A DNA stretch of 36,533 nt from a virus: the UHGV virus genome UHGV-0135234. One strand, written 5' to 3'. Numbering within the stretch: the first letter of the stretch is position 1; each line of letters begins with the position of its first letter. Below, in pieces: positions 3,630-34,190 of this stretch. Under the pieces are notes generated by a model. The model was not told the DNA's origin, searched no databases, and saw only the letters and a program-made list of their open reading frames with translations. The translations under genes and the position numbers were made by a program.

Positions 3630-3644
3630 TTACCGTTGAGGTAA
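3630..3644. promoter_or_regulatory. operator palindrome TTACC-N5-GGTAA (OL-proximal)
   Basis: ttaccgttgaggtaa; overlaps predicted -10/+1 of leftward promoter. Confidence 0.6.
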
Positions 3645-3763: not shown

Positions 3764-4348
3764 TTATTGTTTATTTTTTTCGTTCTGGTTGATGACAAAT
3801 TCAATGTAACTTTCGATCTTTGCCTTCTCTGTTTCAGGTAACAATGCGTAGCGCGAGCGGTCATAGTTGATAGTCGCGGGGTCGTGCGGGTGAATCAGTA
3901 ATTCATATCCGTGACGCCCAAATGCGGATGCAACATTCTCCAGGGTGGAAATGGAAACGCTGACCTCATTGTTTAACAGGCGGCTGATTGTTACCTGGGC
4001 GACGCCGGATGCGCGGTGAAGTTTTCCCTGCGTTGAAAGGTCGCGGCTTTCGCTCATCCAGCGTTCCAGGTTGTGAGCCGCCAGTTGACCAATGTCGCTT
4101 GGTCCGACAGGCTGAAAACCTTCCTGAGAAAGCGAGCGATCGATATCAAGCCAGTTACGGGGTTTATTGGCGGCAGCTTCAATTTTTCGCGCAACCTGGT
4201 CGCCGATAACCTTCTTGCCAAGAGCCCAGCGGTTTACCAGATTTGCCTGAGTTCCAAGTTTTTCAGCCATCCGCGTCTGAACACCATTGAATTCACGGTC
4301 GATCAAGTCGTTGAGATTTTGCCTGCGGACGTCCTGGATACTTTTCAT
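3764..4348 (-). CDS. phage immunity repressor (CI-like, two HTH domains, no S24 peptidase domain)
   Basis: 194 aa; N-terminal HTH (QTRMAEKLGTQANLVNRWALGKK) and second HTH (RASGVAQVTISRLLNNEVSVSISTLENVA); no LexA-like autocleavage domain; divergent from Cro-like gene with operators between. Confidence 0.75.
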   Translation of the reverse strand: MKSIQDVRRQNLNDLIDREFNGVQTRMAEKLGTQANLVNRWALGKKVIGDQVARKIEAAANKPRNWLDIDRSLSQEGFQPVGPSDIGQLAAHNLERWMSESRDLSTQGKLHRASGVAQVTISRLLNNEVSVSISTLENVASAFGRHGYELLIHPHDPATINYDRSRYALLPETEKAKIESYIEFVINQNEKNKQ

Positions 4349-6734: not shown

Positions 6735-6749
6735 TTACCTGTTAGGTAA
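6735..6749. promoter_or_regulatory. operator palindrome TTACC-N5-GGTAA
   Basis: ttacctgttaggtaa upstream of internal promoter. Confidence 0.55.
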
Positions 6750-9759: not shown

Positions 9760-9808
9760 CATGTTACGAGTAGATTATGCATGATGAATTTGATGGGTTT
9801 TGAATACT

Positions 9809-9834
9809 GCCGCCAACTATGGCGGCTTTATTTT
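9809..9834 (+). terminator. rho-independent terminator upstream of terS
   Basis: gccgcc-aactat-ggcggc followed by TTTATTTT. Confidence 0.65.
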
Positions 9835-9845
9835 GCATGGTACTA

Positions 9846-9860
9846 TTACCACAACGGTAA
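9846..9860. promoter_or_regulatory. operator palindrome TTACC-N5-GGTAA upstream of terS
   Basis: ttaccacaacggtaa; preceded by TACTAT -10-like hexamer; direct repeat CTATTACCAC at 9843 and 9861. Confidence 0.55.
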
Positions 9861-9877
9861 CTATTACCACGGTGGTT

Positions 9878-10474
9878 ATGATGCCTGCTGAACCTAAAAC
9901 CTATAAACGCAAATCAACGCAATTTAAGCCGCTCACAGCAATGCAGGAGGCTTATTGCCAGTCATACATCAAAACGCCTGAAAACCAGACTCAGGCAGCG
10001 ATTAACGCAGGATTCTCCCCAAATACAGCGGCAGTTAAAGCCAGTGTCATGATGCGCGATGAACGCATTCAAAAACGGATTGCCGAGTTGATGGAGGAGC
10101 GCAACAAACGAATGCGCGTCAGTGCTGATTACGTTCTCATGCGCCTGGTGGAGATCGACCAGATGGACGTGATCGACATCCTCAACGACGATGGTAGCCT
10201 TAAGCCAATCCGCGAGTGGCCGAAAATCTGGCGCACTACGCTTAGTGGCTTTGATCTGTCATCGACCATCATGAACATGAACGAGGATTCGATAGAGACA
10301 ATCCTCAAAAAAATTAAATGGCCTGACAAGGTGAAGAACCTCGAACTGATTGGTAAGCACGTCGACGTCAACGCATTCAAAGAACGCCTGGATGTTAATG
10401 TGAATGTGACAATTGCTGATCGCATAGCGGCAGCCAGGAAGAGACTGAAAGAACGTCAGGATGGCAATCAGTGA
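9878..10474 (+). CDS. terminase small subunit
   Basis: ORF 9800..10474; ATG at 9878 or 9881 (upstream part contains the terminator); pattern resembles small-terminase family (QEAYCQSYIKTPENQTQAAINAGFSPNTAAVKASVMMRDERIQKRI). Confidence 0.75.
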   Translation: MMPAEPKTYKRKSTQFKPLTAMQEAYCQSYIKTPENQTQAAINAGFSPNTAAVKASVMMRDERIQKRIAELMEERNKRMRVSADYVLMRLVEIDQMDVIDILNDDGSLKPIREWPKIWRTTLSGFDLSSTIMNMNEDSIETILKKIKWPDKVKNLELIGKHVDVNAFKERLDVNVNVTIADRIAAARKRLKERQDGNQ

Positions 10475-11946
10475 CAGATACAGCGTTATCTCCTGAAGAG
10501 CAGTTAATCGAGGATATTGCAGGGTTCACTCACGATCCGCTTGGCTATGCCCTCTATGCGTTCCCGTGGGGGGAAGAGGGTACTGAACTGGCACATGCCA
10601 CCGGTCCACGTCAGTGGCAGGCCGATGCGTTCCGAGAGATACGTGATCACCTGCAGAATCCAGAGACGCGATATCAGCCGCTTATGCTGGCACGCGCTTC
10701 TGGTCACGGTATTGGTAAATCCGCATTCATCTCAATGCTGATCAACTGGGGCATGTCCACTTGCGAGGATTGTAAGGTCGTGGTGACCGCCAACACCGAC
10801 AACCAGCTACGAACGAAGACCTGGCCGGAAATTATCAAGTGGTCGAACCTTGCCATCACGAAAGACTGGTTTACCTGTACCGCTACCGCGATGTACAGCA
10901 ATGATCCTGGGCACGACAAGCGGTGGCGAGCTGACGCAATCCCCTGGTCTGAGCACAACACTGAGGCATTCGCCGGACTACACAACGAGCGCAAACGCAT
11001 CATCGTGGTTTTCGACGAAGCATCCAACATTGCCGATCTGGTGTGGGAGGTAGCAGAGGGTGCGCTGACGGACGAAGACACCGAAATCATCTGGGTGGCG
11101 TTCGGGAACCCGACGCGTAATACCGGGCGTTTCCGCGAATGTTTCCGCAAATATAAACACCGCTGGAAGTGTGCGCAGATTGACAGCCGGACGGTGGAAG
11201 GCACTAACAAACAGCAGTTGCAGAAATGGGTTGATGACTACGGGGAAGACAGCGACTTCGTTAAAATCCGTGTGCGCGGCATATTCCCTGATGCATCTGA
11301 ATTGCAGTTTATCCCTACCGGTCTTACTGATGAGGCAATGAAACGGGTGGTAACCGCTGCGCAGGTGGCGCATGCTCCGGTGATAATCGGTGTTGACCCG
11401 GCATATTCAGGCGTTGATGACGCGGTGATATACCTGCGGCAGGGGCTACACAGTAAGGTGCTGTGGACTGGCAACAAGACTACCGACGATCTGATTATGG
11501 CGAAGCGTATCGCTGACTTTGAAGACCAGTATCAGGCTGACGCGGTGTTCATCGACTTCGGTTACGGAACCGGTTTGAAGTCAATCGGTGATGGCTGGGG
11601 GCGTACATGGCAACTTGTTCCGTTCGGCGGTGCGTCCACTGACCCGCAGATGCTTAACAAGCGTGGGGAGATGTTCAACTCATGTAAGACATGGCTGAGG
11701 CTGGGCGGCATGCTGGATGACCAGGAAACTGCAGACGACCTGTCGGCGGCAGAGTACAAAGTTCGCGTGGACGGTAAAATCGTTATCGAACCGAAGGAGG
11801 ATATCAAGGAGCGGCTTGGGCGTTCGCCGGGTAAAGGCGATGCGCTACTGCTGACGTTTGCGTTCCCTGTGTCGAAGCGTCTGCGAATTCCCGGGCAGCA
11901 GAACCAGCAAGGCAAGGCCATCACAGATTACGATCCCTATGCTTAA
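10471..11946 (+). CDS. terminase large subunit
   Basis: 491 aa; GTG start overlapping terS stop (GTGA); Walker A-like ASGHGIGKS; position and size. Confidence 0.85.
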   Translation: MTDTALSPEEQLIEDIAGFTHDPLGYALYAFPWGEEGTELAHATGPRQWQADAFREIRDHLQNPETRYQPLMLARASGHGIGKSAFISMLINWGMSTCEDCKVVVTANTDNQLRTKTWPEIIKWSNLAITKDWFTCTATAMYSNDPGHDKRWRADAIPWSEHNTEAFAGLHNERKRIIVVFDEASNIADLVWEVAEGALTDEDTEIIWVAFGNPTRNTGRFRECFRKYKHRWKCAQIDSRTVEGTNKQQLQKWVDDYGEDSDFVKIRVRGIFPDASELQFIPTGLTDEAMKRVVTAAQVAHAPVIIGVDPAYSGVDDAVIYLRQGLHSKVLWTGNKTTDDLIMAKRIADFEDQYQADAVFIDFGYGTGLKSIGDGWGRTWQLVPFGGASTDPQMLNKRGEMFNSCKTWLRLGGMLDDQETADDLSAAEYKVRVDGKIVIEPKEDIKERLGRSPGKGDALLLTFAFPVSKRLRIPGQQNQQGKAITDYDPYA

Positions 11947-11997
11947 TCCGCTGGTGGGGATAATGTCGTTGATATCCTCTGGTGAGGATAAAACAAA

Positions 11998-12023
11998 GCC
12001 AGCTCATAGGCTGGCTGTTTGTG
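11998..12023. terminator. bidirectional terminator between convergent terL and Gp49-like gene
   Basis: gccagc-tcatag-gctggc hairpin; T-rich on minus side (TTTGTTTT). Confidence 0.5.
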
Positions 12024-12036: not shown

Positions 12037-12417
12037 TTATTGCTCGCTTAGCTTCTGCTTCAGCAAGTAACCTTCGAGCATCCAGATTTTGTTTACAGCA
12101 TTCTGCCGGGCAATCTTCCGACCAATTTCTGCATCAAAGTTTTCCGGGCTTGCACAGGCGCTCTCTCCGGTGACGGTGAAGCCATTCTTCAGCACCAGTA
12201 CGCAGAAAGTGAGCAACTTCAATGGTGATAAATCACGATCGCCTTCTTCTGGTTTTTCCCTGCCACAATATTCGTTGCTGGAAATGGCACCATTACGTCC
12301 ATCATAAGCAGTAAAGTAATGCTCGCTTTTAATCACGTCTTCGATGTGCTGCGGAGTGATTCTCGGAGCGGTTTTGCCTTTCTCAACGATTTCTTTTTCG
12401 ATTTGCTGGTCGTTCAT
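12037..12417 (-). CDS. Gp49-like phage protein (unknown function)
   Basis: 126 aa; AAGGTG SD; reverse-oriented inside late region; conserved block LTFCVLVLKNGFTVTGESACASPENFDAEIGRKIA. Confidence 0.55.
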   Translation of the reverse strand: MNDQQIEKEIVEKGKTAPRITPQHIEDVIKSEHYFTAYDGRNGAISSNEYCGREKPEEGDRDLSPLKLLTFCVLVLKNGFTVTGESACASPENFDAEIGRKIARQNAVNKIWMLEGYLLKQKLSEQ

Positions 12418-12615
12418 AATCTCACCTTAAAAAAATGCCCGGCGAACCGGGCGAACTGGAAGCAATGAGTTATGCCTTCCGTGGCTGTACGGGTTTACAG
12501 CATGAAGTCATCGCAATGGCGTCCTGCTGTAAAAAGGGCGGTGATAGTCCTTCAAGGGAAACCATCACCGCCAAGCACCTGGAACTTCTGGCATCACGGT
12601 CCTTAGGCGTGATTC

Positions 12616-12692
12616 TGGCGTGGCATGCAGGATTCGAACCTGCGACCAACCGCTTAGAAGGCGGTTGCTCTGTCCAACTGAGCTAATGCCAC
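12616..12692 (-). tRNA. tRNA-Arg (anticodon UCU)
   Basis: 77 nt GTGGCATTAGCTCAGTTGGACAGAGCAACCGCCTTCTAAGCGGTTGGTCGCAGGTTCGAATCCTGCATGCCACGCCA; 7-bp acceptor stem, D-arm GCTC/GAGC, anticodon loop CTTCTAA, T-loop TTCGAAT, encoded CCA. Confidence 0.9.
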
Positions 12693-13021
12693 AACGCTGA
12701 GAGCACTGGTTTGGCTCGATATCAGGTAGGGTGGAACAGCCCGCTAATATCCAATGCTCTCATCGTTGTACCCTCGTCTCTTCCGAGGCGTCACACCGAA
12801 TCGCCGGGATGGTGAATCCCCGTGCGCGGAATAAAACCGCTCGACTTGCACATTCCGGCTACCTGGTTCGTTTGCCCGAGCAAGGGAGGGTGCCCCTTAA
12901 ACGTATCCAGACCGCTATCGGCGCATGTGCCATACGCCGTACTGCTCAAAATAAAAGCTCACTCCACCTGTTCAATTTAACGACAAGCCAGTCAGGTTAG
13001 TAACCGGAATGAACTCTTTGG

Positions 13022-13036
13022 TTACCTGAAAGGTAA
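13022..13036. promoter_or_regulatory. operator palindrome TTACC-N5-GGTAA upstream of head operon
   Basis: ttacctgaaaggtaa. Confidence 0.55.
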
Positions 13037-13126
13037 TAATTTGTGCGTTAAATGTCAACTATCTACGATAAATAAATCATATGTGGTTAAATTGGTAATA
13101 ATTTAATTGCGTACGGAGTCATTGAT

Positions 13127-13333
13127 ATGTGCATGGGTAGCTCACCATCAGTGCCTGCAACACCAGAAGTTCAGGCAGCACCACAGGAGCAGGATGCCGC
13201 CGTTGTTGATGCCCGCGACGAAGAAACTCGTCGCCGTCGCGCTGCTGCTGGTCGTAGTTCTACGCTGCTTACCGGTTCTCAGGGCGACACATCAACCGCT
13301 AATACCAGCGGTAAAACGCTACTTGGTCAGTAA
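13127..13333 (+). CDS. hypothetical small protein preceding portal
   Basis: 68 aa; same initiation context (cggagtcattga + ATG) as the portal gene. Confidence 0.4.
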   Translation: MCMGSSPSVPATPEVQAAPQEQDAAVVDARDEETRRRRAAAGRSSTLLTGSQGDTSTANTSGKTLLGQ

Positions 13334-13347
13334 CCGGAGTCATTGAA

Positions 13348-15027
13348 ATGGCGGAAACAACTAAAGAGCGATTGAACAAACAGTTCGCACAACTTGAAAG
13401 CGAGCGTCAGTCGTTCGAGCCGCACTGGCGCGAGTTGAGTGATTACATCAACCCGCGTGGTTCCCGCTTTCTGACTTCTGAGGTCAACCGTAACGATCGA
13501 CGCAATACACGTATTATTGATTCGACCGGGACTATGGCGGCGCGCACTCTCGCCAGCGGCATGATGTCAGGCATCACAAGCCCCGCGCGTCCGTGGTTTC
13601 GCCTGGCTACGCCAGATCCTGAAATGATGGATTATGGCCCTGTTAAGTTGTGGCTTGAGGCGGTGCAGAACCGCATGAACGATATGTTCAATAAGTCGAA
13701 TCTCTACCAGTCTCTTCCGCAGTTATACGGAAGCCTCGGCACATACAGCACCGGTGCAATGGCGGTACTGGAGGATGACGAGGACATCATTCGCACAATG
13801 CCATTCCCGATAGGCAGTTACTACCTGGCTAACTCACCTCGTGGCAGTGTGGACACCTGTTTTCGCAAGTTCTCTATGACTGTTCGTCAGCTTGTTCAGG
13901 AGTTCGGGCTAAATAACGTCAGCGAATCTGTAAAAAGCATGTGGGAAAGCGGCACCTACGAGAAGTGGATTGAAGTGATGCATTCGGTTTACCCGAACAT
14001 TGACCGCGATACATCGAAGCTGGATAGCAAGAACAAGCCATTCAAATCGGTTTATTACGAGGTTGGCGGCGATAACGACAAGTTGTTGCGTGAGTCCGGA
14101 TTCGATGAGTTTCCAATTATGGCTCCGCGCTGGGAAGTTAACGGCGAAGATGTTTATGGATCATCGTGCCCGGGTATGCTGGCGCTTGGACCTGTTAAGG
14201 CATTGCAGCTTCTCCAGAAGCGCAAGTCGCAGTTGATTGATAAAGCCACCAATCCGCCGATGGTTGCTCCGACTTCCCTCAAGAATCAGCGCGCCTCCCT
14301 TCTTCCTGGCGACATCACGTATATCGATCAGATTACTGGTCAGGATGGCTTCAGGCCTGCTTATCTGGTTAACCCCAGTACAGCAGATTTGGTGGCAGAC
14401 ATTCAGGACACTCGTCAAATCATTAACAGCGCCTACTTTGTCGATCTGTTCATGATGTTGCAGAACATCAATACCCGCTCGATGCCTGTTGAAGCGGTGA
14501 TCGAAATGAAAGAAGAAAAACTTCTGATGTTGGGGCCGGTTCTGGAGCGTCTGAACGACGAATGTCTTAATCCTCTCATTGACCGCGCTTTCTCGATGAT
14601 GGTGCGTAAAAACATGCTGCCGCCACCGCCTGACGCGATGGAAGGCATGCCCCTGAAGGTCGAATACATTTCCGTCATGGCTCAGGCGCAGAAGTCTATC
14701 GGCCTGTCCAGTCTGGCGTCCACGGTTAACTTCATTGGTCAACTTGCGCAAGCGAAACCAGAAGCTCTCGACAAACTCAACGTTGATCAGGCGATCGATG
14801 CATTCGCTGATATGTCCGGAGTGTCTCCAACCGTCATTGTTCCGCAGGAACAGGTTGAGCAGGCTCGCCAGCAACGGGCACAGCAGCAACAGCAGCAACA
14901 AATGATGGCGATGGGGATGGCGGCGGCACAGGGTGCCAAGACGCTAAGCGAAGCTAAAACTTCGGATCCGAGTGTTTTGTCAGCTATGGCGAATGCAGTT
15001 AGTGGTCAGGGTGGGCAATCACAATGA
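13348..15027 (+). CDS. portal protein (T7 gp8-like head-to-tail connector)
   Basis: 559 aa; C-terminal Gln/Met/Ala-rich tail (QQRAQQQQQQQMMAMGMAAAQG) like the T7 portal C-terminus; position after terminase. Confidence 0.85.
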   Translation: MAETTKERLNKQFAQLESERQSFEPHWRELSDYINPRGSRFLTSEVNRNDRRNTRIIDSTGTMAARTLASGMMSGITSPARPWFRLATPDPEMMDYGPVKLWLEAVQNRMNDMFNKSNLYQSLPQLYGSLGTYSTGAMAVLEDDEDIIRTMPFPIGSYYLANSPRGSVDTCFRKFSMTVRQLVQEFGLNNVSESVKSMWESGTYEKWIEVMHSVYPNIDRDTSKLDSKNKPFKSVYYEVGGDNDKLLRESGFDEFPIMAPRWEVNGEDVYGSSCPGMLALGPVKALQLLQKRKSQLIDKATNPPMVAPTSLKNQRASLLPGDITYIDQITGQDGFRPAYLVNPSTADLVADIQDTRQIINSAYFVDLFMMLQNINTRSMPVEAVIEMKEEKLLMLGPVLERLNDECLNPLIDRAFSMMVRKNMLPPPPDAMEGMPLKVEYISVMAQAQKSIGLSSLASTVNFIGQLAQAKPEALDKLNVDQAIDAFADMSGVSPTVIVPQEQVEQARQQRAQQQQQQQMMAMGMAAAQGAKTLSEAKTSDPSVLSAMANAVSGQGGQSQ

Positions 15028-15320
15028 CAGATTACGAAGACGATAAACTGAAAGAAGAAAACGCCCGTAAGCAACGTGACATGGCGCAGCGTGAAATTGA
15101 TGACATTCGCTTTGTCATGAGCAGTGAACAGGGGCGTCGCGTTGTCTGGTCGGTGCTGGAGAAAGGCCGTGTGTTTTCCGCTATCTCACCGATGGACGCT
15201 ATGGCAATGGCATTTAATGAGGGGCAACGCAATCTGGCGCTGGAACTGTTTCAGCGCGTTATGGCGCATTGCCCTGAACAGTATTTGAAGATGGCCAAAG
15301 AGGCCAGTGAACAGGAGTGA
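15024..15320 (+). CDS. hypothetical head-assembly protein
   Basis: 98 aa; ATGA-coupled between portal and scaffold. Confidence 0.55.
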   Translation: MTDYEDDKLKEENARKQRDMAQREIDDIRFVMSSEQGRRVVWSVLEKGRVFSAISPMDAMAMAFNEGQRNLALELFQRVMAHCPEQYLKMAKEASEQE

Positions 15321-15322
15321 TC

Positions 15323-16018
15323 ATGAATTTATTTGAGCGTTTGCTGTATCGCCGTCTTTGCAATGAGCAACCAGTCGATGGTGGAGCAGCTCCGGCTGCG
15401 TCAGAACCGTCAGCGCCTGCAGGTGATAACCCTGCTCCAGTTGGTGATCCATCACAACAGGAAGGTGATAAGCCACAACCTGTTGCTGATGGCGATAAAC
15501 CTGCTGATGACAAAAAGCCTGAAAACGATAAGCAGGATGAAAAAAAGGACGGCGATAAACCAGAGGGTGCGCCTGAGAAGTACGAGTTTCAGGCAGCCGA
15601 AGGCGTAGAGCTGGATACAGAAGCGTTGAAGGAATTCGAGCCGGTGGCGCGAGAACTTAACCTGACCAACGAGCAAGCGCAAAAGCTGGTTGATGCTTAT
15701 CCGAAGATTCTGGCAGGTGTTCAGCAGCGCCAGGCAGAAGCCTGGCAGAAAACAACCGAGCAGTGGGCTGCGGATGTAAAAGCTGACAAAGAAATCGGTG
15801 GCGACAAGTTGATTTCTAACCTTAGCGCCGCACAGCGTGCGCTTGACCAGTTCGGGACACCTGAACTCAAAGAATATCTGAACACCACCGGGCTGGGTAA
15901 TCACCCTGATCTGGTCAAAACGTTCGTGAAAATTGGAAAGGCGATGTCTGAAGATGGCATGGTCACCGGTGGTAATGAAGGCCAGCGTAGTGCGGCCGAA
16001 GTGCTCTATGGCAAATAA
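15323..16018 (+). CDS. scaffolding protein (putative)
   Basis: ORF 15317..16018 (GTG); ATG at 15323 with AGGAG SD; acidic, low-complexity Pro/Asp/Lys-rich N-region; directly precedes capsid gene. Confidence 0.65.
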   Translation: MNLFERLLYRRLCNEQPVDGGAAPAASEPSAPAGDNPAPVGDPSQQEGDKPQPVADGDKPADDKKPENDKQDEKKDGDKPEGAPEKYEFQAAEGVELDTEALKEFEPVARELNLTNEQAQKLVDAYPKILAGVQQRQAEAWQKTTEQWAADVKADKEIGGDKLISNLSAAQRALDQFGTPELKEYLNTTGLGNHPDLVKTFVKIGKAMSEDGMVTGGNEGQRSAAEVLYGK

Positions 16019-16026
16019 GAGAGGAA

Positions 16027-17019
16027 ATGACAATGGCTGTTAAAGGCTTAACTGCGCTAACGCTGGCTGACTGGGGTAAGCGCGTCGATCCAAACGGGAA
16101 AGTCGATAAGATTATCGAGCTTCTCGGTCAAACTAACCCGATCCTTCAGGATATGCCTTTTGTCGAAGGGAACCTTCCTACCGGACACCGAACCACCATT
16201 CGTTCTGGTTTACCTTCAGCTACCTGGCGTTTGCTGAACTATGGCGTACAGCCAAGCAAATCAACCACAGTGCAGGTAACCGATTACGTTGGCATGCTGG
16301 AAACCTATGCTGAAGTCGATAAGTCACTGGCTGATCTGAACGGCAATACCGCCGAATTCCGCCTGTCTGAAGACCGCGCATTTATTGAAGCGATGAATCA
16401 GCAGATGGCGCAGACGCTGTTTTATGGTGATTCCAGCGTTAACCCTCAGCAGTTTATGGGACTGTCCTCCCGCTATTCCAGCCTGTCTGCGGGTAATGCT
16501 CAGAACATCATTGATGCTGGTGGCACGGGTACAGATAACACCTCAATCTGGTTAGTGGTGTGGGGCGAAAACACCGTGCATGGCATCTTCCCGAAAGGGC
16601 AGAAGGCTGGCATTCAGATGGAAGATAAAGGCCAGGTGACACTGGAAGATGCTAATGGCGGCAAGTACGAAGGCTACCGTACCCATTACAAATGGGACAA
16701 CGGACTTGCTCTGCGTGACTGGCGTTATGTTGTTCGCATTGCAAACATCGATGTCAGCAATCTTTCAGAACCTTCCTCTGCCGCAAATATTGCGAAGTTG
16801 ATGGTTAAAGCACTGCATCGCATTCCAAATCGTGGCATGGGTCGCCCGGTGTTCTACATGAACCGCACTGTAGGCCAGGCTCTTGATCTGCAATCTCTGG
16901 AGAAAACATCTCTGGCGATCAGCGTAAAAGAGACAGAAGGCGAGTGGTGGACTTCATTCCGTGGTGTACCAATCCGTGAAACTGATGCGCTTCTGGAAAC
17001 AGAAGCCCGCGTGGTGTAA
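16027..17019 (+). CDS. major capsid protein
   Basis: 330 aa; strong SD GAGAGG; follows scaffold; followed by stem-loop 17036..17055. Confidence 0.8.
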   Translation: MTMAVKGLTALTLADWGKRVDPNGKVDKIIELLGQTNPILQDMPFVEGNLPTGHRTTIRSGLPSATWRLLNYGVQPSKSTTVQVTDYVGMLETYAEVDKSLADLNGNTAEFRLSEDRAFIEAMNQQMAQTLFYGDSSVNPQQFMGLSSRYSSLSAGNAQNIIDAGGTGTDNTSIWLVVWGENTVHGIFPKGQKAGIQMEDKGQVTLEDANGGKYEGYRTHYKWDNGLALRDWRYVVRIANIDVSNLSEPSSAANIAKLMVKALHRIPNRGMGRPVFYMNRTVGQALDLQSLEKTSLAISVKETEGEWWTSFRGVPIRETDALLETEARVV

Positions 17020-17070
17020 CGCCTGTTATTAACCTGTGGGTCGTAACAGACCCACTAATGGAGAAAGAAG

Positions 17071-17508
17071 ATGATCACCGACAAACTGTTGATGTTCTCC
17101 GAAGCTCAGGCGGTTACGAATACCGCGGCTTCTACTGACGTAATCGATCTCGGTCCAATTGACGGAAAACGTCGTGATATTGGCGTTGGTTACCCGCTTG
17201 AGTTTTGGGTGCTGGTTAACGAAGCCGCCACGGCAAGTGGTGAGGCAACTGTAAACATCCAGTTGCAGACGAGTGAGAATAACAGCTCTTGGACCACTAT
17301 TTATGATAGTGGTGCGTTGGCAAAGGCCACCCTGACAGCAGGTAAGCGAGTTGTTTCTGCAAAGGTGCCAGCCGGTGTTCAGCGATATCTGCGTGTTAAC
17401 TACTCCGTCGCAACTGGCCCACTAACGGCCGGCAAATTCACTGCGGGTATCAGTCTGGATGTTGATGCCAATACGCCGTATCCGATCCGCTCAAAAGTAA
17501 CTGGTTAA
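17071..17508 (+). CDS. putative capsid-associated structural protein
   Basis: 145 aa, Thr/Ala/Val-rich beta-type sequence; GGAGAAAG SD. Confidence 0.55.
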   Translation: MITDKLLMFSEAQAVTNTAASTDVIDLGPIDGKRRDIGVGYPLEFWVLVNEAATASGEATVNIQLQTSENNSSWTTIYDSGALAKATLTAGKRVVSAKVPAGVQRYLRVNYSVATGPLTAGKFTAGISLDVDANTPYPIRSKVTG

Positions 17509-30548: not shown

Positions 30549-31235
30549 TCAGAAGAACCCAGCCTTGTCGTTGATGTACTCCGCGTGGGTCTGGATATCA
30601 CGCAGGCATTTGCTCACACCAACAATGTAGCAGAACATGGTGGTCAGCTCCGCCGCCGCGCCCGATACGTCGTGCCCGTCTTCCTGTAACTGGTTCAGCA
30701 GATTCATCAGCAGTGAGTTCTCCGTCAGGCCGAGAACACCAGACGGAGAATGAATCAGGCTGCGGTAGCCGGGCTTCAGTGGGGCACTGTAGGTTTTGTT
30801 CTCTATCTTCATTGCCTGCATCACTGCTGATGCTGTGGCGTTGGCTACCTGGTCGGCAACTATCTTTATGCGTTCTTCCTGCGGGAGCGAGTTTTTAATG
30901 TAACTTCCGGTGCGGCGGATCTGAGGAAGAACCTCACCTGTAACCCATTTACGAAAGCGGTAGGGGATAGTGCCTGGTGTCACTGCGTCGCGGCAGCGGA
31001 GGATCAGTGTGTAGAGGCCTGACTCGTTGATAATATTGGTTTCACCTTGACGGCCTAAGTTAAATTTAGCCCTTTCATCATCATCAAGAGATTTTATTGA
31101 CATAGTGGGGTTTGTCAGTTGAAGAGCTTTAATAACGTCTTTGGCAACAAACCAAGGATTTCCATCAATAACAATGGCTCGAATGGTGGCTTCTGATTCA
31201 AAATGAAAAACAGATGGGGTTACGTTAGCAGTCAT
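30549..31235 (-). CDS. Bro-N domain antirepressor-like protein
   Basis: ORF 30549..31388; ATG at 31235 (MTANVTPSVFHFESEATIRAIVIDGNPWFVAKDVIKALQL... classic Bro-N N-terminus); AAGGTGA SD; upstream extension is a structured leader. Confidence 0.8.
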   Translation of the reverse strand: MTANVTPSVFHFESEATIRAIVIDGNPWFVAKDVIKALQLTNPTMSIKSLDDDERAKFNLGRQGETNIINESGLYTLILRCRDAVTPGTIPYRFRKWVTGEVLPQIRRTGSYIKNSLPQEERIKIVADQVANATASAVMQAMKIENKTYSAPLKPGYRSLIHSPSGVLGLTENSLLMNLLNQLQEDGHDVSGAAAELTTMFCYIVGVSKCLRDIQTHAEYINDKAGFF

Positions 31236-31388
31236 AGTGATCACCTTTGTAGTTAGGTTAATCACCACTACCGACGCCAATCGGTTGGTGGTGAACTGTG
31301 CAGGGTTGGCGTAACCGGCTACAAAGGACCCGGCGCACCTTTCGGTGCCCCCACACAGCCCACCATAGAATAGGTGCGCTTTACACAT

Positions 31389-31408
31389 AAAAAAACCGCT
31401 TATGCGGC
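31389..31408 (-). terminator. intrinsic terminator/attenuator in Bro leader
   Basis: Minus strand gccgc-ataa-gcggu followed by seven U. Confidence 0.45.
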
Positions 31409-31501
31409 ATATGTGCCTCTGTAGTAACCCGGGACGCCAATCCCGGCACTGGATTTTGCCAGTGCCCGATTACTATGGCACAAGAGGAGTGCGATGTAAA
31501 T

Positions 31502-31516
31502 TTACCGAAAAGGTAA
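31502..31516. promoter_or_regulatory. operator palindrome TTACC-N5-GGTAA
   Basis: ttaccgaaaaggtaa directly downstream of putative Bro promoter. Confidence 0.55.
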
Positions 31517-32000: not shown

Positions 32001-34190
32001 ATGACGGTCTCAACCGAAGTTGACCACAACGAATACACCGGTAACGGCGTTACGACATCATTTCCGTATACCTTCCGTATTTTCAAAAAAACCGACCTGG
32101 TTGTTCAGGTGTCTGACCTGAACGGGAACGTAACAGAATTGGTTCTGGATACCGGTTATAAGGTAACTGGAGCGGGCACTTATAGTGGCGGTGAAGTGGT
32201 TCTCCCGTCGCCGCTTGCTGCTGGCTGGCGAATTACGATAGAGCGTGTGCTTGATGTGGTGCAGGAGACTGATCTTCGCAATCAGGGAAAATTTTTCCCC
32301 GAAGTTCATGAAGATGCATTTGACTACCTGACGATGCTGATCCAGCGATGTTTTGGGTGGTTCAGACGTGCATTGATGAAACCATCTTTGCTTGCAAAAT
32401 ATTACGATGCAAAGCAAAACAAAATTTCTAACCTTGCAGATCCATCATTTGAGCAGGACGCTGTAAATAATCGCTCAATGCGTAATTATGTCGATGCTGC
32501 AATCGCCGGGGTTGTTGGTGGTTTTGGTTGGTTTATACCGTCAGGAAGCGGGGCAAGACAACGAACATTTCAAAGCAAAATGAGGGATATAATTTCTCCT
32601 TGTGATTACGAAGATAATATTTTTATGATTAAGGAGTTGATATCCAAAGGCAAAAATGCCGCTGTTTTTAACTCATATTATACTTTTGTTATTACTGTTG
32701 GCGAATGGGGTGATTTCCCTACACTCAAAGATGCAATCATTGCAGCCCAGTCAATGAGACCTATGTGGGATGGTGGTAATGCTTTCTGCGAAATAAGAAT
32801 TAAGACCGGGCATATTATCAACTATCAAATTGAATTCAGTTCAGGTGTTGATTTGTCTTGGATTAAAATAACATCAGAAGACTCAGTGGTTTTCTCTGAC
32901 ACTCGTTTGTTTACTAAAATCGTTAGAACGTATTACGAATACAAGTATTTATTTTACATTTGCGATGCAGCAAAAAGTCCTGTATTTGCTATTCAGATCG
33001 AAGAAAATAGAGATGATAGCGATGTTTGTGCATTTATTGTAACTCAAAAAGCTGAACTTAATTTCTATCCGTATTCAGGTGCTCGAAAGTTCTACGTTGG
33101 AATTCATGGTAGTTTTGGTGCAAAAATTAGTGCATATCATACCGGATGTGCTCCTGATGAGGAAAGTGTTGCTGCATATATGCCAGAAGGGTATTACGTA
33201 TGTGATTTTTCTTATAGCAGATACTCTTCCCTGCAACTGGTAAATAATGTCAAGGCATCAATGCCTGTAAGCAAGTTTGAACGGTGCACAGAGAGTACGG
33301 TTGCGTCAGTTAATTGTATTTATAATGTTAAAGCAGATTTTCAGGGGTCAAGTGCAAGCTATTGTTATATAGGATGGAATGTAAGAGATGGTTCAAATGT
33401 TAATATACGCGACCATAAAACTATACATTGCTCATATCGTGGATTAACCTGCATTCATACAGCATATGTTGATGCAAGACGACATGACGTTGAAGAAAGT
33501 GATGCAGAAACAAGTGGTAAAGTCCTTGAACCAAATATTGAAAAAGGTTTTTATGGATGTGCACTTGGTGTGCGTATTGATGGTGCGGGTTGCGTTGATG
33601 TTGCTGGTAATGATATGCGCAATTGTGGAACAGCCGTTAATGCAGACACTGGTGCTGTTATTTCAGGAAAGGCTGTAGATATCTCAGGGGCTGAGCTGGG
33701 ATTTGATTGCCATGCAGGAGCATCTGTTAATTTTCCAAGGCTATGGGGTACAGATATAAAAAAATTAATGCACCTCCAAGATGGTGTAAGGTTTAACTCT
33801 AATATTTGTCATGTATTTGGTGCAAATCCCACAAAAGATATTAGATGGATTGATGTAGAGAGATCTGAAGCTTCTTTTATGAATGCAACGCTGGATGCAG
33901 ATTCAGGATTTATTGCCGACTGTGGTAGTAGGATAACCATTGAAGGAAGTAAAGTTAAAAACCAAACAATAAGAAGTTTTTTTGGATCATATGTGGCTAT
34001 AAATAATACTGTTGCTGACAGAACTTATTCAGATATAGCCGATGTTCCGCAGTTGACTATTAGTGGAGGATCTTTTATTTCTGCTACAGGATATTCTAAT
34101 TCTGACTCCAGCCCTCTGAGGTTGAGCACAACACGAAATACACTTGGCGTTGGAGGAGCCATATTTTCAACCAATGGGGAAGTTTCATGA
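32001..34190 (+). CDS. tailspike/tail fiber with T7 gp17-like N-terminal adaptor and AT-rich C-terminal receptor-binding domain
   Basis: 729 aa; N-terminal about 130 aa matches podovirus tail-fibre N-domain pattern; composition becomes AT-rich from about 32450. Confidence 0.8.
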   Translation: MTVSTEVDHNEYTGNGVTTSFPYTFRIFKKTDLVVQVSDLNGNVTELVLDTGYKVTGAGTYSGGEVVLPSPLAAGWRITIERVLDVVQETDLRNQGKFFPEVHEDAFDYLTMLIQRCFGWFRRALMKPSLLAKYYDAKQNKISNLADPSFEQDAVNNRSMRNYVDAAIAGVVGGFGWFIPSGSGARQRTFQSKMRDIISPCDYEDNIFMIKELISKGKNAAVFNSYYTFVITVGEWGDFPTLKDAIIAAQSMRPMWDGGNAFCEIRIKTGHIINYQIEFSSGVDLSWIKITSEDSVVFSDTRLFTKIVRTYYEYKYLFYICDAAKSPVFAIQIEENRDDSDVCAFIVTQKAELNFYPYSGARKFYVGIHGSFGAKISAYHTGCAPDEESVAAYMPEGYYVCDFSYSRYSSLQLVNNVKASMPVSKFERCTESTVASVNCIYNVKADFQGSSASYCYIGWNVRDGSNVNIRDHKTIHCSYRGLTCIHTAYVDARRHDVEESDAETSGKVLEPNIEKGFYGCALGVRIDGAGCVDVAGNDMRNCGTAVNADTGAVISGKAVDISGAELGFDCHAGASVNFPRLWGTDIKKLMHLQDGVRFNSNICHVFGANPTKDIRWIDVERSEASFMNATLDADSGFIADCGSRITIEGSKVKNQTIRSFFGSYVAINNTVADRTYSDIADVPQLTISGGSFISATGYSNSDSSPLRLSTTRNTLGVGGAIFSTNGEVS

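Follow-up and report, generated by a model that had tools for sequence, protein, structure and literature searches.

The virus genome UHGV-0135234, a stretch of 36,533 nucleotides that we refer to as the window, is that of a Uetakevirus (an epsilon15/phiV10-like temperate podophage) and shares about 97.5% identity, over about 90% of 25 kb, with the phages vB_EcoP_PAS61, phiv142-3 and vB_EcoP_ZX5. ARAGORN detected a single transfer RNA (tRNA) gene in the whole window, a tRNA-Arg with anticodon tct at 12616-12692 on the minus strand. The gene is antisense to the plus-strand structural genes and sits between the large terminase and portal genes, and our analysis suggests that it is a phage tRNA lodged inside a larger, leftward, non-coding unit. 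The features of this unit, in the order in which they would be transcribed, are listed below, followed by the neighbouring genes, with the evidence in parentheses (loci from other genomes are given by L numbers).

13030-13058, minus strand: predicted sigma-70 promoter, -35 box TTGACA at 13058-13053, 17-nt spacer, -10 box TACCTT at 13035-13030 (read from the sequence)
13022-13036, no strand assigned: repressor operator palindrome TTACCTGAAAGGTAA (TTACCT-N3-AGGTAA), over the -10 box and the predicted start (site count; annotation of the epsilon15 homologue)
12941-13023, minus strand: predicted 5' leader, with the motif GUCGUUAAAU...GGUGGAGUGAGC common to epsilon15, Tyrion and BUCT711 (alignments; k-mer map)
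12745-12940, minus strand: conserved RNA core, composed of P1, P2a/P2, a variable P3, P4, a pseudoknot and P5, with the invariant block GGUAGCCGGAAUGUGCAAG (covariance model R1; covariation)
12693-12768, minus strand: long helix P6, 5' strand CAACGAUGAGAGCAUU at 12768-12753 and 3' strand AGUGCUCUCAGCGUU at 12707-12693, around a variable hairpin insert
12616-12692, minus strand: tRNA-Arg, anticodon UCU (ARAGORN; RF00005; alignment with argU and the phage copies; identity to phiV10)
12593-12613, minus strand: hairpin P7, AUCACG-loop-CGUGAU, directly 3' of the tRNA (tRNA-less copies have a homologous hairpin behind the slot)
12528-12572, minus strand: T1, a 14-bp hairpin followed by CUUUUUAC, terminator-like (terminator scan; covarying stem in mEp460-type and other copies)
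12428-12452, minus strand: T2, a GC-rich intrinsic terminator GCCCGGUUCGCCGGGC with a U7 run (terminator scan; common to epsilon15, L015, L103 and L046)
12037-12417, minus strand: gene of the Gp49 (N4) / Sf6 gene 66 family, 126 aa (PF13876, E 3.4e-35; Gp49 family in the Prokaryotic Genome Annotation Pipeline, PGAP)
11997-12016, minus strand: T3, a terminator-like hairpin after the Gp49-family gene (terminator scan)
9800-10474, plus strand: small terminase gene (PF03592)
10471-11946, plus strand: terminase large subunit gene, 491 aa (annotation of the phiv142-3 and epsilon15 homologues)
13348-15027, plus strand: portal (head-to-tail connector) gene (PF12236, E 1.6e-187)
16027-17019, plus strand: major capsid protein gene

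The first-pass annotation, made from the sequence alone, had described a clean 77-nt tRNA-Arg(UCU) cloverleaf on the strand opposite the terminase and portal genes, and this observation is confirmed. ARAGORN, one of the predictors proposed as a check, accepts the structure with one call at exactly these coordinates, and the Rfam model RF00005 matches 12619-12692 on the minus strand over its full length, with 73.3 bits against a gathering score of 29 (E 2e-14). The position between terminase and portal is borne out by Pfam matches and by homologue annotation; the 491-aa open reading frame (ORF) at 10471-11946 has no Pfam match. The tRNA is 77 nt long, has stems of 7, 4, 5 and 5 bp and encodes its 3' CCA. 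By inspection, in standard numbering, it displays U8, A14, G18G19, U33 and the T loop GUUCGAAUC, which follows GUUCRANYC, as found in bacterial elongator tRNAs. The identity elements of the E. coli arginyl-tRNA synthetase (ArgRS) are A20, C35, U36 and G or A at position 73, and inspection of the phage tRNA finds A20, C35, U36 and G73. Together with the anticodon UCU, these residues place it among the argU-type tRNA-Arg(UCU).

The tRNA itself is already known and routinely annotated, and the surrounding RNA context is the new part. The phiV10 tRNA sequence is 100% identical to that of the window, and a tRNA-Arg is annotated in phiv142-3, in the O157 typing phages 9 and 10, in SPC32H/N and SPN9TCW and, among prophages annotated by PGAP, for example in that of APEC O1; the tRNA is also present in SPN1S, and one tRNA is annotated in vB_EcoP_ZX5 (PMC9782041). 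The tRNA-Arg(UCU) of phiV10, SPN1S/SPC32H, the O157 typing phages 9/10, phiv142-3 and ZX5 is the same gene at the same locus, with no material difference. A megablast search revealed the tRNA in 508 of 5426 complete E. coli genomes (about 9%), 339 of them with at least 99% identity. Some records miss the tRNA or describe the region otherwise: that of phiv142-3 gives the tRNA as 69 nt and on the wrong strand, and among DQ126339/NC_007804, PP445227, MW722083, JQ011317 and MN187550 several place a "hypothetical protein", not a tRNA, over the matched region. The rare-codon tRNAs of Shiga toxin (Stx)-converting lambdoid phages, such as argO, are likewise tRNA-Arg of temperate E. coli phages and show about 82-84% identity over the central 57 nt, but they differ in genomic location, in transcription unit, which is the late region, and in sequence, and they are not tied to a structured RNA.

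Alignment with argU, the tRNA-Arg(UCU) of the E. coli K-12 host, showed 64 of 77 positions identical (83%). The 13 differences fall in the acceptor pairs 2:71, 4:69 and 6:67, in the anticodon-stem pairs 29:41 and 30:40 and at positions 20a, 45 and 48, and every change in a stem is compensatory. The anticodon with its loop, the D stem and the T arm are the same in both, as are the ArgRS identity nucleotides. The two therefore share what decoding and charging read and differ in three swapped acceptor pairs and two swapped anticodon-stem pairs; in addition, argU is a stand-alone chromosomal gene, whereas the phage tRNA is embedded in a larger RNA. The first-pass statement that the acceptor and anticodon stems depart from argU thus holds. 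Since the stem changes are compensatory and the loops, T arm and identity nucleotides are intact, "phage variant" is an accurate description.

The predicted promoter of the unit would start transcription near 13023. It is near-invariant in five Uetakeviruses (the window, epsilon15, Tyrion, BUCT711 and SPN1S), those without the tRNA included, the only deviations being a -35 box TTGACC in BUCT711 and a -10 box TACCCT in Tyrion. The operator palindrome, searched as TTACC-N5-GGTAA with up to 2 mismatches, occurs at 15 sites in the window against 0.82 expected, a count reached in 0 of 100 shuffles. Copies at 3630, 3692, 4404 and 4452 flank the helix-turn-helix repressor gene at 3764-4348 and lie between it and a divergent cro-like ORF, and further copies, several of them promoter-proximal, lie at 6735, 6797, 30462, 31502 and 31882. 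In the curated epsilon15 record the homologous sites, including one at this promoter, are marked as repressor binding sites. From this arrangement we infer that the tRNA unit would stay off in the lysogen and come on early once the phage infects or is induced. The same context recurs in unrelated phages that carry the RNA core described below: in mEp460 the element starts about 40 nt past a PL-like promoter with two TTGC-N7-GCAA operators that match OR, and in P7 it stands between a tRNA-Ile and ban, as part of the ban operon under C1 control.

The 434 bp that lie 5' of the tRNA on its own strand (12693-13126) are non-coding. A block at about 12753-12940 shows 78-80% identity to unannotated intergenic DNA of unrelated temperate phages, namely mEp460, cdtI, 2H10, 1720a-02 and Stx2a- or Stx2c-converting lambdoids on the one hand and P1, P7, D6, SJ46 and RCS47 on the other, with weaker matches in the Klebsiella phage SopranoGao and a Stenotrophomonas phage. 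An invariant 18-mer, GTAGCCGGAATGTGCAAG (12862-12845), was found in more than 120 IMG/VR contigs, which represent 115 distinct contexts and 36 clusters at <85% identity; its invariance is by construction, because the copies were gathered through it. It is present once in the window and about once per locus elsewhere (131 matches in 133 records), which excludes tandem copies of the element. The alignment reveals invariant single-stranded blocks between hairpins that vary in length and sequence.

We proposed the structure of this core, which spans about 190 nt of a non-coding unit of about 0.36-0.6 kb, by eye, with a pseudoknot between the P4 loop and GGUG, and scored it on 30 diverse copies. 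Pairing is possible in 94.4% of the cells, against 26-45% when the partners are slid by 1-3 columns. Both sides have changed in 12 of the 30 pairs, compensatory cells number 66 (19 ± 5 in shuffles), and the covariation score is 0.254 against 0.119 ± 0.008, a value reached by 0 of 500 shuffles; these figures come from mutually related sequences, from which the structure itself was also derived. The strand of the tRNA is the transcribed one, as the frequent G-U pairs in helix P1 indicate, and transcription from the plus strand is ruled out, as it would turn these pairs into C-A.

The covariance model built on the core (R1) scores 158 bits on the window copy (E 2e-49). Among 27 species-representative genome loci with an 18-mer match, full-length copies (119-187 bits) were present in 23. 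All of these but one belong to named Enterobacterales genera (Kosakonia, Citrobacter, Klebsiella, Phytobacter, Kluyvera, Enterobacter, Buttiauxella, Erwinia, Escherichia and others), the remaining one being a 1.75-kb contig binned as a Bacillota metagenome-assembled genome. The other four matches (Dysgonamonadaceae, Oscillospiraceae, Bacteroides and Azonexus) have no R1 support and were taken as chance.

Scans against Rfam 15, run in the window at the gathering score and at E<=5 and in six other loci at E<=1, gave no match to the element, and a literature search with the sequence strings of its invariant blocks returned no paper from the collection searched. It is unannotated in nearly all phage records. 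No consistent ORF was found in the conserved DNA on either strand, nor after the conserved slot described below. Two plus-strand ORFs, of 83 aa (12435-12686) and 89 aa (12731-13000), overlap the tRNA and the core, without a Pfam match, and a protein-coding explanation was rejected on both grounds. The element is absent from the E. coli K-12 prophage CPS-53, whose genes resemble the early-left genes of mEp460; homology between the two begins only at the yfdP ribosome-binding site.

Downstream of the core, the strands of P6 vary in a compensatory manner among 24 distinct copies, as in GAGAGCAUU/AGUGCUCUC, GAGCGCACU/AGUGCGCUC and, in D6, AAGGCG/CGCCGUU. P6 is followed by a conserved GUUGUGG in about 110 of 119 distinct loci. 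In copies without a tRNA this motif pairs with a downstream CCACAAC to form a helix, P8, which closes a variable domain; in mEp460 P8 is a perfect 9-bp helix, GUUGUGGUG/CACCACAAC. In the window, G1-U2-G3-G4 and C69-C70-A71-C72 of the tRNA coincide exactly with the GUGG/CCAC of P8. The 5' GUGG is invariant in all tRNA-bearing copies and the 3' strand drifts by wobble-compatible changes, such as U2-G71 and G3-U70 in the tRNA of BUCT711 (L011). The fixed 5' strand opposite a drifting 3' strand indicates, at the level of sequence, that the larger RNA constrains the 5' acceptor strand of the tRNA. The divergence of the acceptor stem from argU would then follow from its coincidence with a conserved helix of that RNA. 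Hairpin P7, after the slot, has covarying variants as well (GCGCA/UGCGC, GCACA/UGUGC, GCCCA/UGGGC and CACG/CGUG). Where P8 closes the slot, P7, T1 and T2 come next, as they do behind the tRNA in the window.

The predicted transcript of 599 nt folds at -235 kcal/mol, against -200 ± 7 for shuffled sequences (z = -4.84; 0 of 100), and its minimum-energy fold recovers P1, P5, P6, the tRNA arms, T1 and T2. When we surveyed 131 loci for a nearby tRNA, 84 had none, 29 had a tRNA-Arg(UCU) in the slot and 18, of the phage P1 type, had a tRNA(CAU) upstream of the core, at a distance of 18 nt. All 47 element-adjacent tRNAs point the same way as the element. Elsewhere the slot is filled by unrelated hairpins and degenerate tRNA-like sequences, the latter in L087 (GUGGUUAGCUCAGG...) and L100, with a T-arm in L079. 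T-arm-like motifs (GGTTCRANTCC) were also seen in the P6 insert of the tRNA-less loci L007, L015 and L106. The tRNA-like remnants hint that tRNAs have entered this RNA, been lost from it or decayed within it more than once. We also observed that the GUUG of the conserved motif could pair with CAAC at the base of P6 (12692-12695 with 12765-12768) or, in tRNA-less copies, with the CAAC of P8, so that a conformational switch is possible.

Together, these data lead us to propose, with a probability of roughly 0.6, that the window carries a genuine and probably functional phage tRNA-Arg(UCU) inside a leftward non-coding unit of about 0.6 kb between terminase and portal. What the sequences show is a tRNA gene identical to known phage copies, an operator, a conserved promoter, an RNA with covarying helices and the geometry of the graft; transcription, processing, charging and a benefit for translation are what we infer from them. 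When repression is lifted, by infection or induction, the sigma-70 promoter whose -10 box is overlapped by the operator would fire, and RNA polymerase would transcribe the pseudoknotted core, P6, the tRNA, P7, T1 and T2 in turn, with possible read-through past T1/T2 into the Gp49-family gene. The tRNA would be grafted on a conserved helix, its first four acceptor pairs, GUGG/CCAC, being that helix. The mature tRNA, with CCA at its 3' end, would then be freed by RNase P and by processing on the 3' side. Charging by ArgRS is expected, since A20, C35, U36 and G73 are all present, and the charged tRNA would read AGA and, by wobble, AGG.

A need for such decoding was assessed by counting codons in 44 phage ORFs (11,105 codons), in 30 ordinary K-12 genes and in K-12 genes of the ribosome and the elongation factors, as follows.

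This phage: AGA 7.7 per 1000, AGG 4.6 per 1000
Ordinary K-12 genes (30): AGA 2.4 per 1000, AGG 1.9 per 1000
K-12 ribosomal and elongation-factor genes: AGA 1.1 per 1000, AGG 0 per 1000

AGA is thus rare in the host and enriched in the phage, where its frequency is 3-7 times that of host genes. The rare arginine codons are very unevenly spread across the phage genome. The heavy users are a 729-aa gene at 32001-34190, in the tailspike position (13 AGA and 5 AGG), large virion proteins and early genes. AGA use in relatives was compared with one uniform ORF heuristic in four genomes, a sample that makes the result indicative and not conclusive.

This window, with tRNA-Arg: AGA 7.6 per 1000
SPN1S, with tRNA-Arg: AGA 5.4 per 1000
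Tyrion, without tRNA-Arg: AGA 7.5 per 1000
epsilon15, without tRNA-Arg: AGA 4.2 per 1000

Several of these results weigh against our proposal. The head module at 13127-17508, which spans a gp3-like ORF, the portal and capsid genes and the next ORF and encodes the late products needed in the largest amounts, contains 0 AGA and 1 AGG in 1427 codons, and AGA use in the two tRNA-less relatives is comparable to that of the carriers, so that neither a concentration in late genes nor, in this small sample of four genomes, a link between tRNA carriage and codon use was found. Codon compensation as the rationale of the tRNA is weakened by both facts and is plausible but weakly supported. The first-pass annotation had pointed to the rarity of AGA in enterobacteria and to late-gene codon use as a check; the rarity in the host and the enrichment in the phage stand, and a need for AGA decoding in the late head genes does not. 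In addition, the promoter was found by eye, a simple promoter scan having missed it because its -10 box matches the consensus at 3 of 6 positions, and the operator might instead, or also, control a rightward late promoter. P6, P7 and P8 were likewise judged by eye, without statistical scoring. Finally, epsilon15 is viable without the tRNA and most of the core, which shows that the tRNA is dispensable. Its copy is a clean deletion of about 330 nt that keeps the promoter and loses the rest of the core, P6, the tRNA and P7. The remnant (L005 2813-2902; NC_004775 ~2787-2876) keeps helix P1 and half of P2 and resumes inside T1; part of it is annotated as an RNase III site.

The alternative that survives best, though we consider it unlikely, is that the tRNA acts mainly as punctuation or cargo of the larger structured RNA and that AGA decoding is secondary. 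As punctuation, the cloverleaf would recruit RNase P and the 3' enzymes and so fix where the core ends and where the downstream segment begins; as cargo, it would be carried like the tRNAs in GOLLD linkers, which is compatible with charging. The use of one defined slot, elsewhere filled by unrelated hairpins or degenerate tRNA-like sequences, agrees with this idea, as do the invariant 5' GUGG beside its drifting partner, the tRNA(CAU) located just upstream of the core in P1-type phages, the uncoupling of tRNA carriage from AGA use and the report that the GOLLD linker sometimes holds phage tRNAs (PMC12286853). However, a plain hairpin suffices in most lineages, and the ArgRS identity elements and anticodon loop are strictly kept in a tRNA that is about 99% conserved across hundreds of prophages, which points to selection for decoding, beyond shape alone.

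Much less probable is an anti-defence role, in which the tRNA would be a substitute or decoy for a host tRNA-Arg(UCU) cut by an anticodon nuclease (colicin D-like, for example), with stems altered for escape. The evasion of tRNA-targeting defences by phage tRNAs is an established concept, the stem differences at 29:41 and 30:40 adjoin the anticodon loop, and the unit is predicted to switch on in lytic growth. Nevertheless, the 7-nt anticodon loop is the same as in argU, while escape variants typically alter the loop; tRNA-less sister phages thrive; and we know of no nuclease specific for tRNA-Arg(UCU) among E. coli defence systems.

The idea that the tRNA is a captured argU fragment, left as an attachment-site remnant or a decaying, functionless pseudogene, is largely refuted and in our estimate has almost no chance of being right: argU is known to serve for integration, as with DLP12 in K-12, epsilon15 has lost the tRNA, and the attP of epsilon34 matches part of it (positions 33-67 only, a segment that according to its record resembles the 3' end of Salmonella argU), but the cloverleaf here is complete, with its CCA kept and all stem changes compensatory, and is conserved at 99% or more in 339 genomes. 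The relative vB_EcoP_ZX5, with 97.6% identity, has its attP 190 bp away from the integrase gene and its attB at the 3' end of guaA (PMC9782041), so the tRNA is not a relic of the attachment site. The Pfam scan and gene map of the window place no integrase gene near it, and it is neither partial nor identical to the host gene. The full-length alignment with argU and the ZX5 attP at the integrase rule out a remnant of this kind, and the first-pass interpretation of the tRNA as a phage variant, not a captured fragment that marks an attachment site, is supported.

Around the unit we noted further variable modules. T2 abuts the Shine-Dalgarno site of the next gene, and the Gp49-family gene found there is variable cargo: it is present in the window, APEC O1 and epsilon15 and absent from phiv142-3 (whose match starts only at position 12413 of the window), and L015, L103 and L046 have other genes in its position. 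In Tyrion the terminase-portal cargo region (L010 3903-3967) contains an Rfam int-alpA RNA at 44 bits (gathering score 35.8). Many tRNA-less copies end in an RprA-like 3' module (UUGCUGUGUGUAGUCUU plus a terminator), and 13 of 33 representatives have the motif CTGTGTGTA about 310 nt past the 18-mer. Its Rfam match in the Stenotrophomonas phage BUCT708 (L009 2631-2750) reaches 50 bits against a gathering score of 70 and is the only nearby sub-threshold match. The motif is absent from this window; its sequence elsewhere suggests that some versions of the element may end in a mimic of the host small RNA RprA. At a distance from the unit, a C4 antisense RNA (79.5 bits) and an isrK-like RNA (74.7 bits) were detected on the minus strand at 31284-31370 and 31389-31465, directly upstream of a Bro-N antirepressor gene (30549-31388, minus strand) with which they form an antirepressor control module like immI of P1, and the operator copy at 31502 lies beside it. 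The C4 and isrK pair is also found in mEp460 (L006 206-394).

Beyond the proposal of a functional tRNA-Arg(UCU) in a leftward non-coding unit, the tRNA may be viewed, at somewhat less than even odds, as an interchangeable module of an undescribed class of phage RNA that heads repressor-controlled early transcripts in at least three unrelated lineages and acts as an antiterminator or as a tRNA-cargo RNA. In that case the class would consist of a pseudoknotted core of about 190 nt plus P6-P8, about 0.36-0.6 kb in all, with the acceptor stem of the tRNA as a helix of the RNA, and the lineages would be Uetakevirus, the SfV/mEp460-type lambdoids including Stx2 phages, and P1/P7/D6. By analogy with known systems, the RNA may act in cis as a new kind of processive antiterminator and so allow polymerase past T1/T2, or it may be a large RNA of the GOLLD/ROOL kind that carries tRNA cargo released by RNase P. 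Punctuation by RNase P through the tRNA or tRNA-like module is compatible with other ideas and is speculative.

The put RNAs of HK022 are about 70 nt long with two stem-loops, and putL lies just behind PL (PMC9378689). The mEp460-type element resembles these and the putL-like RNA of HK639 in its place just past a PL-like promoter with OL-type operators and in being followed by terminator-like hairpins and then genes. A location behind an early repressor-controlled promoter and before terminators was found in mEp460 and in the window, and P7 has the element in its C1-controlled operon. However, the size, structure and sequence of put were not found, the core here having five helices and a pseudoknot over about 190 nt. 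R1 gave no match at E<=10 on the annotated putL-like RNA of HK639, and the sequences are not alignable, which rules out membership in that family.

The GOLLD and ROOL RNAs are large phage RNAs that often lie close to tRNA islands, with tRNAs sometimes in the GOLLD linker (PMC12286853). Like them, the present unit belongs to phages and is built of modules, namely a conserved core, inserts that vary and a linker-like slot that holds a tRNA, but it is smaller, occurs in Enterobacterales phages and lies right behind repressor-controlled promoters. Neither the GOLLD nor the ROOL model matched the window, whether at the gathering score or with the cutoff relaxed to E<=5, and the six other loci were equally negative at E<=1.

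The tRNA alone adds nothing new, and its context could matter. A strongly covarying RNA without an Rfam match lies unannotated, always in sense orientation and behind repressor-controlled promoters, in Stx2-converting phages, in plasmid prophages of the P1 family and in epsilon15-like serotype-converting phages. The part that deserves follow-up is this widespread, covarying and apparently undescribed RNA, with its predicted repressor control and a tRNA grafted on one of its helices. Its constraint as a scaffold offers a concrete reason for the divergence of the phage tRNA stems from host tRNAs that involves neither translation nor evasion of defence. If the RNA is an antiterminator, early-gene antitermination would have a third solution beside lambda N and HK022 put, and it would become clear how lambdoid phages without an annotated N gene pass their early terminators. 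If instead the RNA serves as a scaffold that carries tRNAs, the association of large phage RNAs with tRNAs, so far unexplained, could be studied in a tractable E. coli model.

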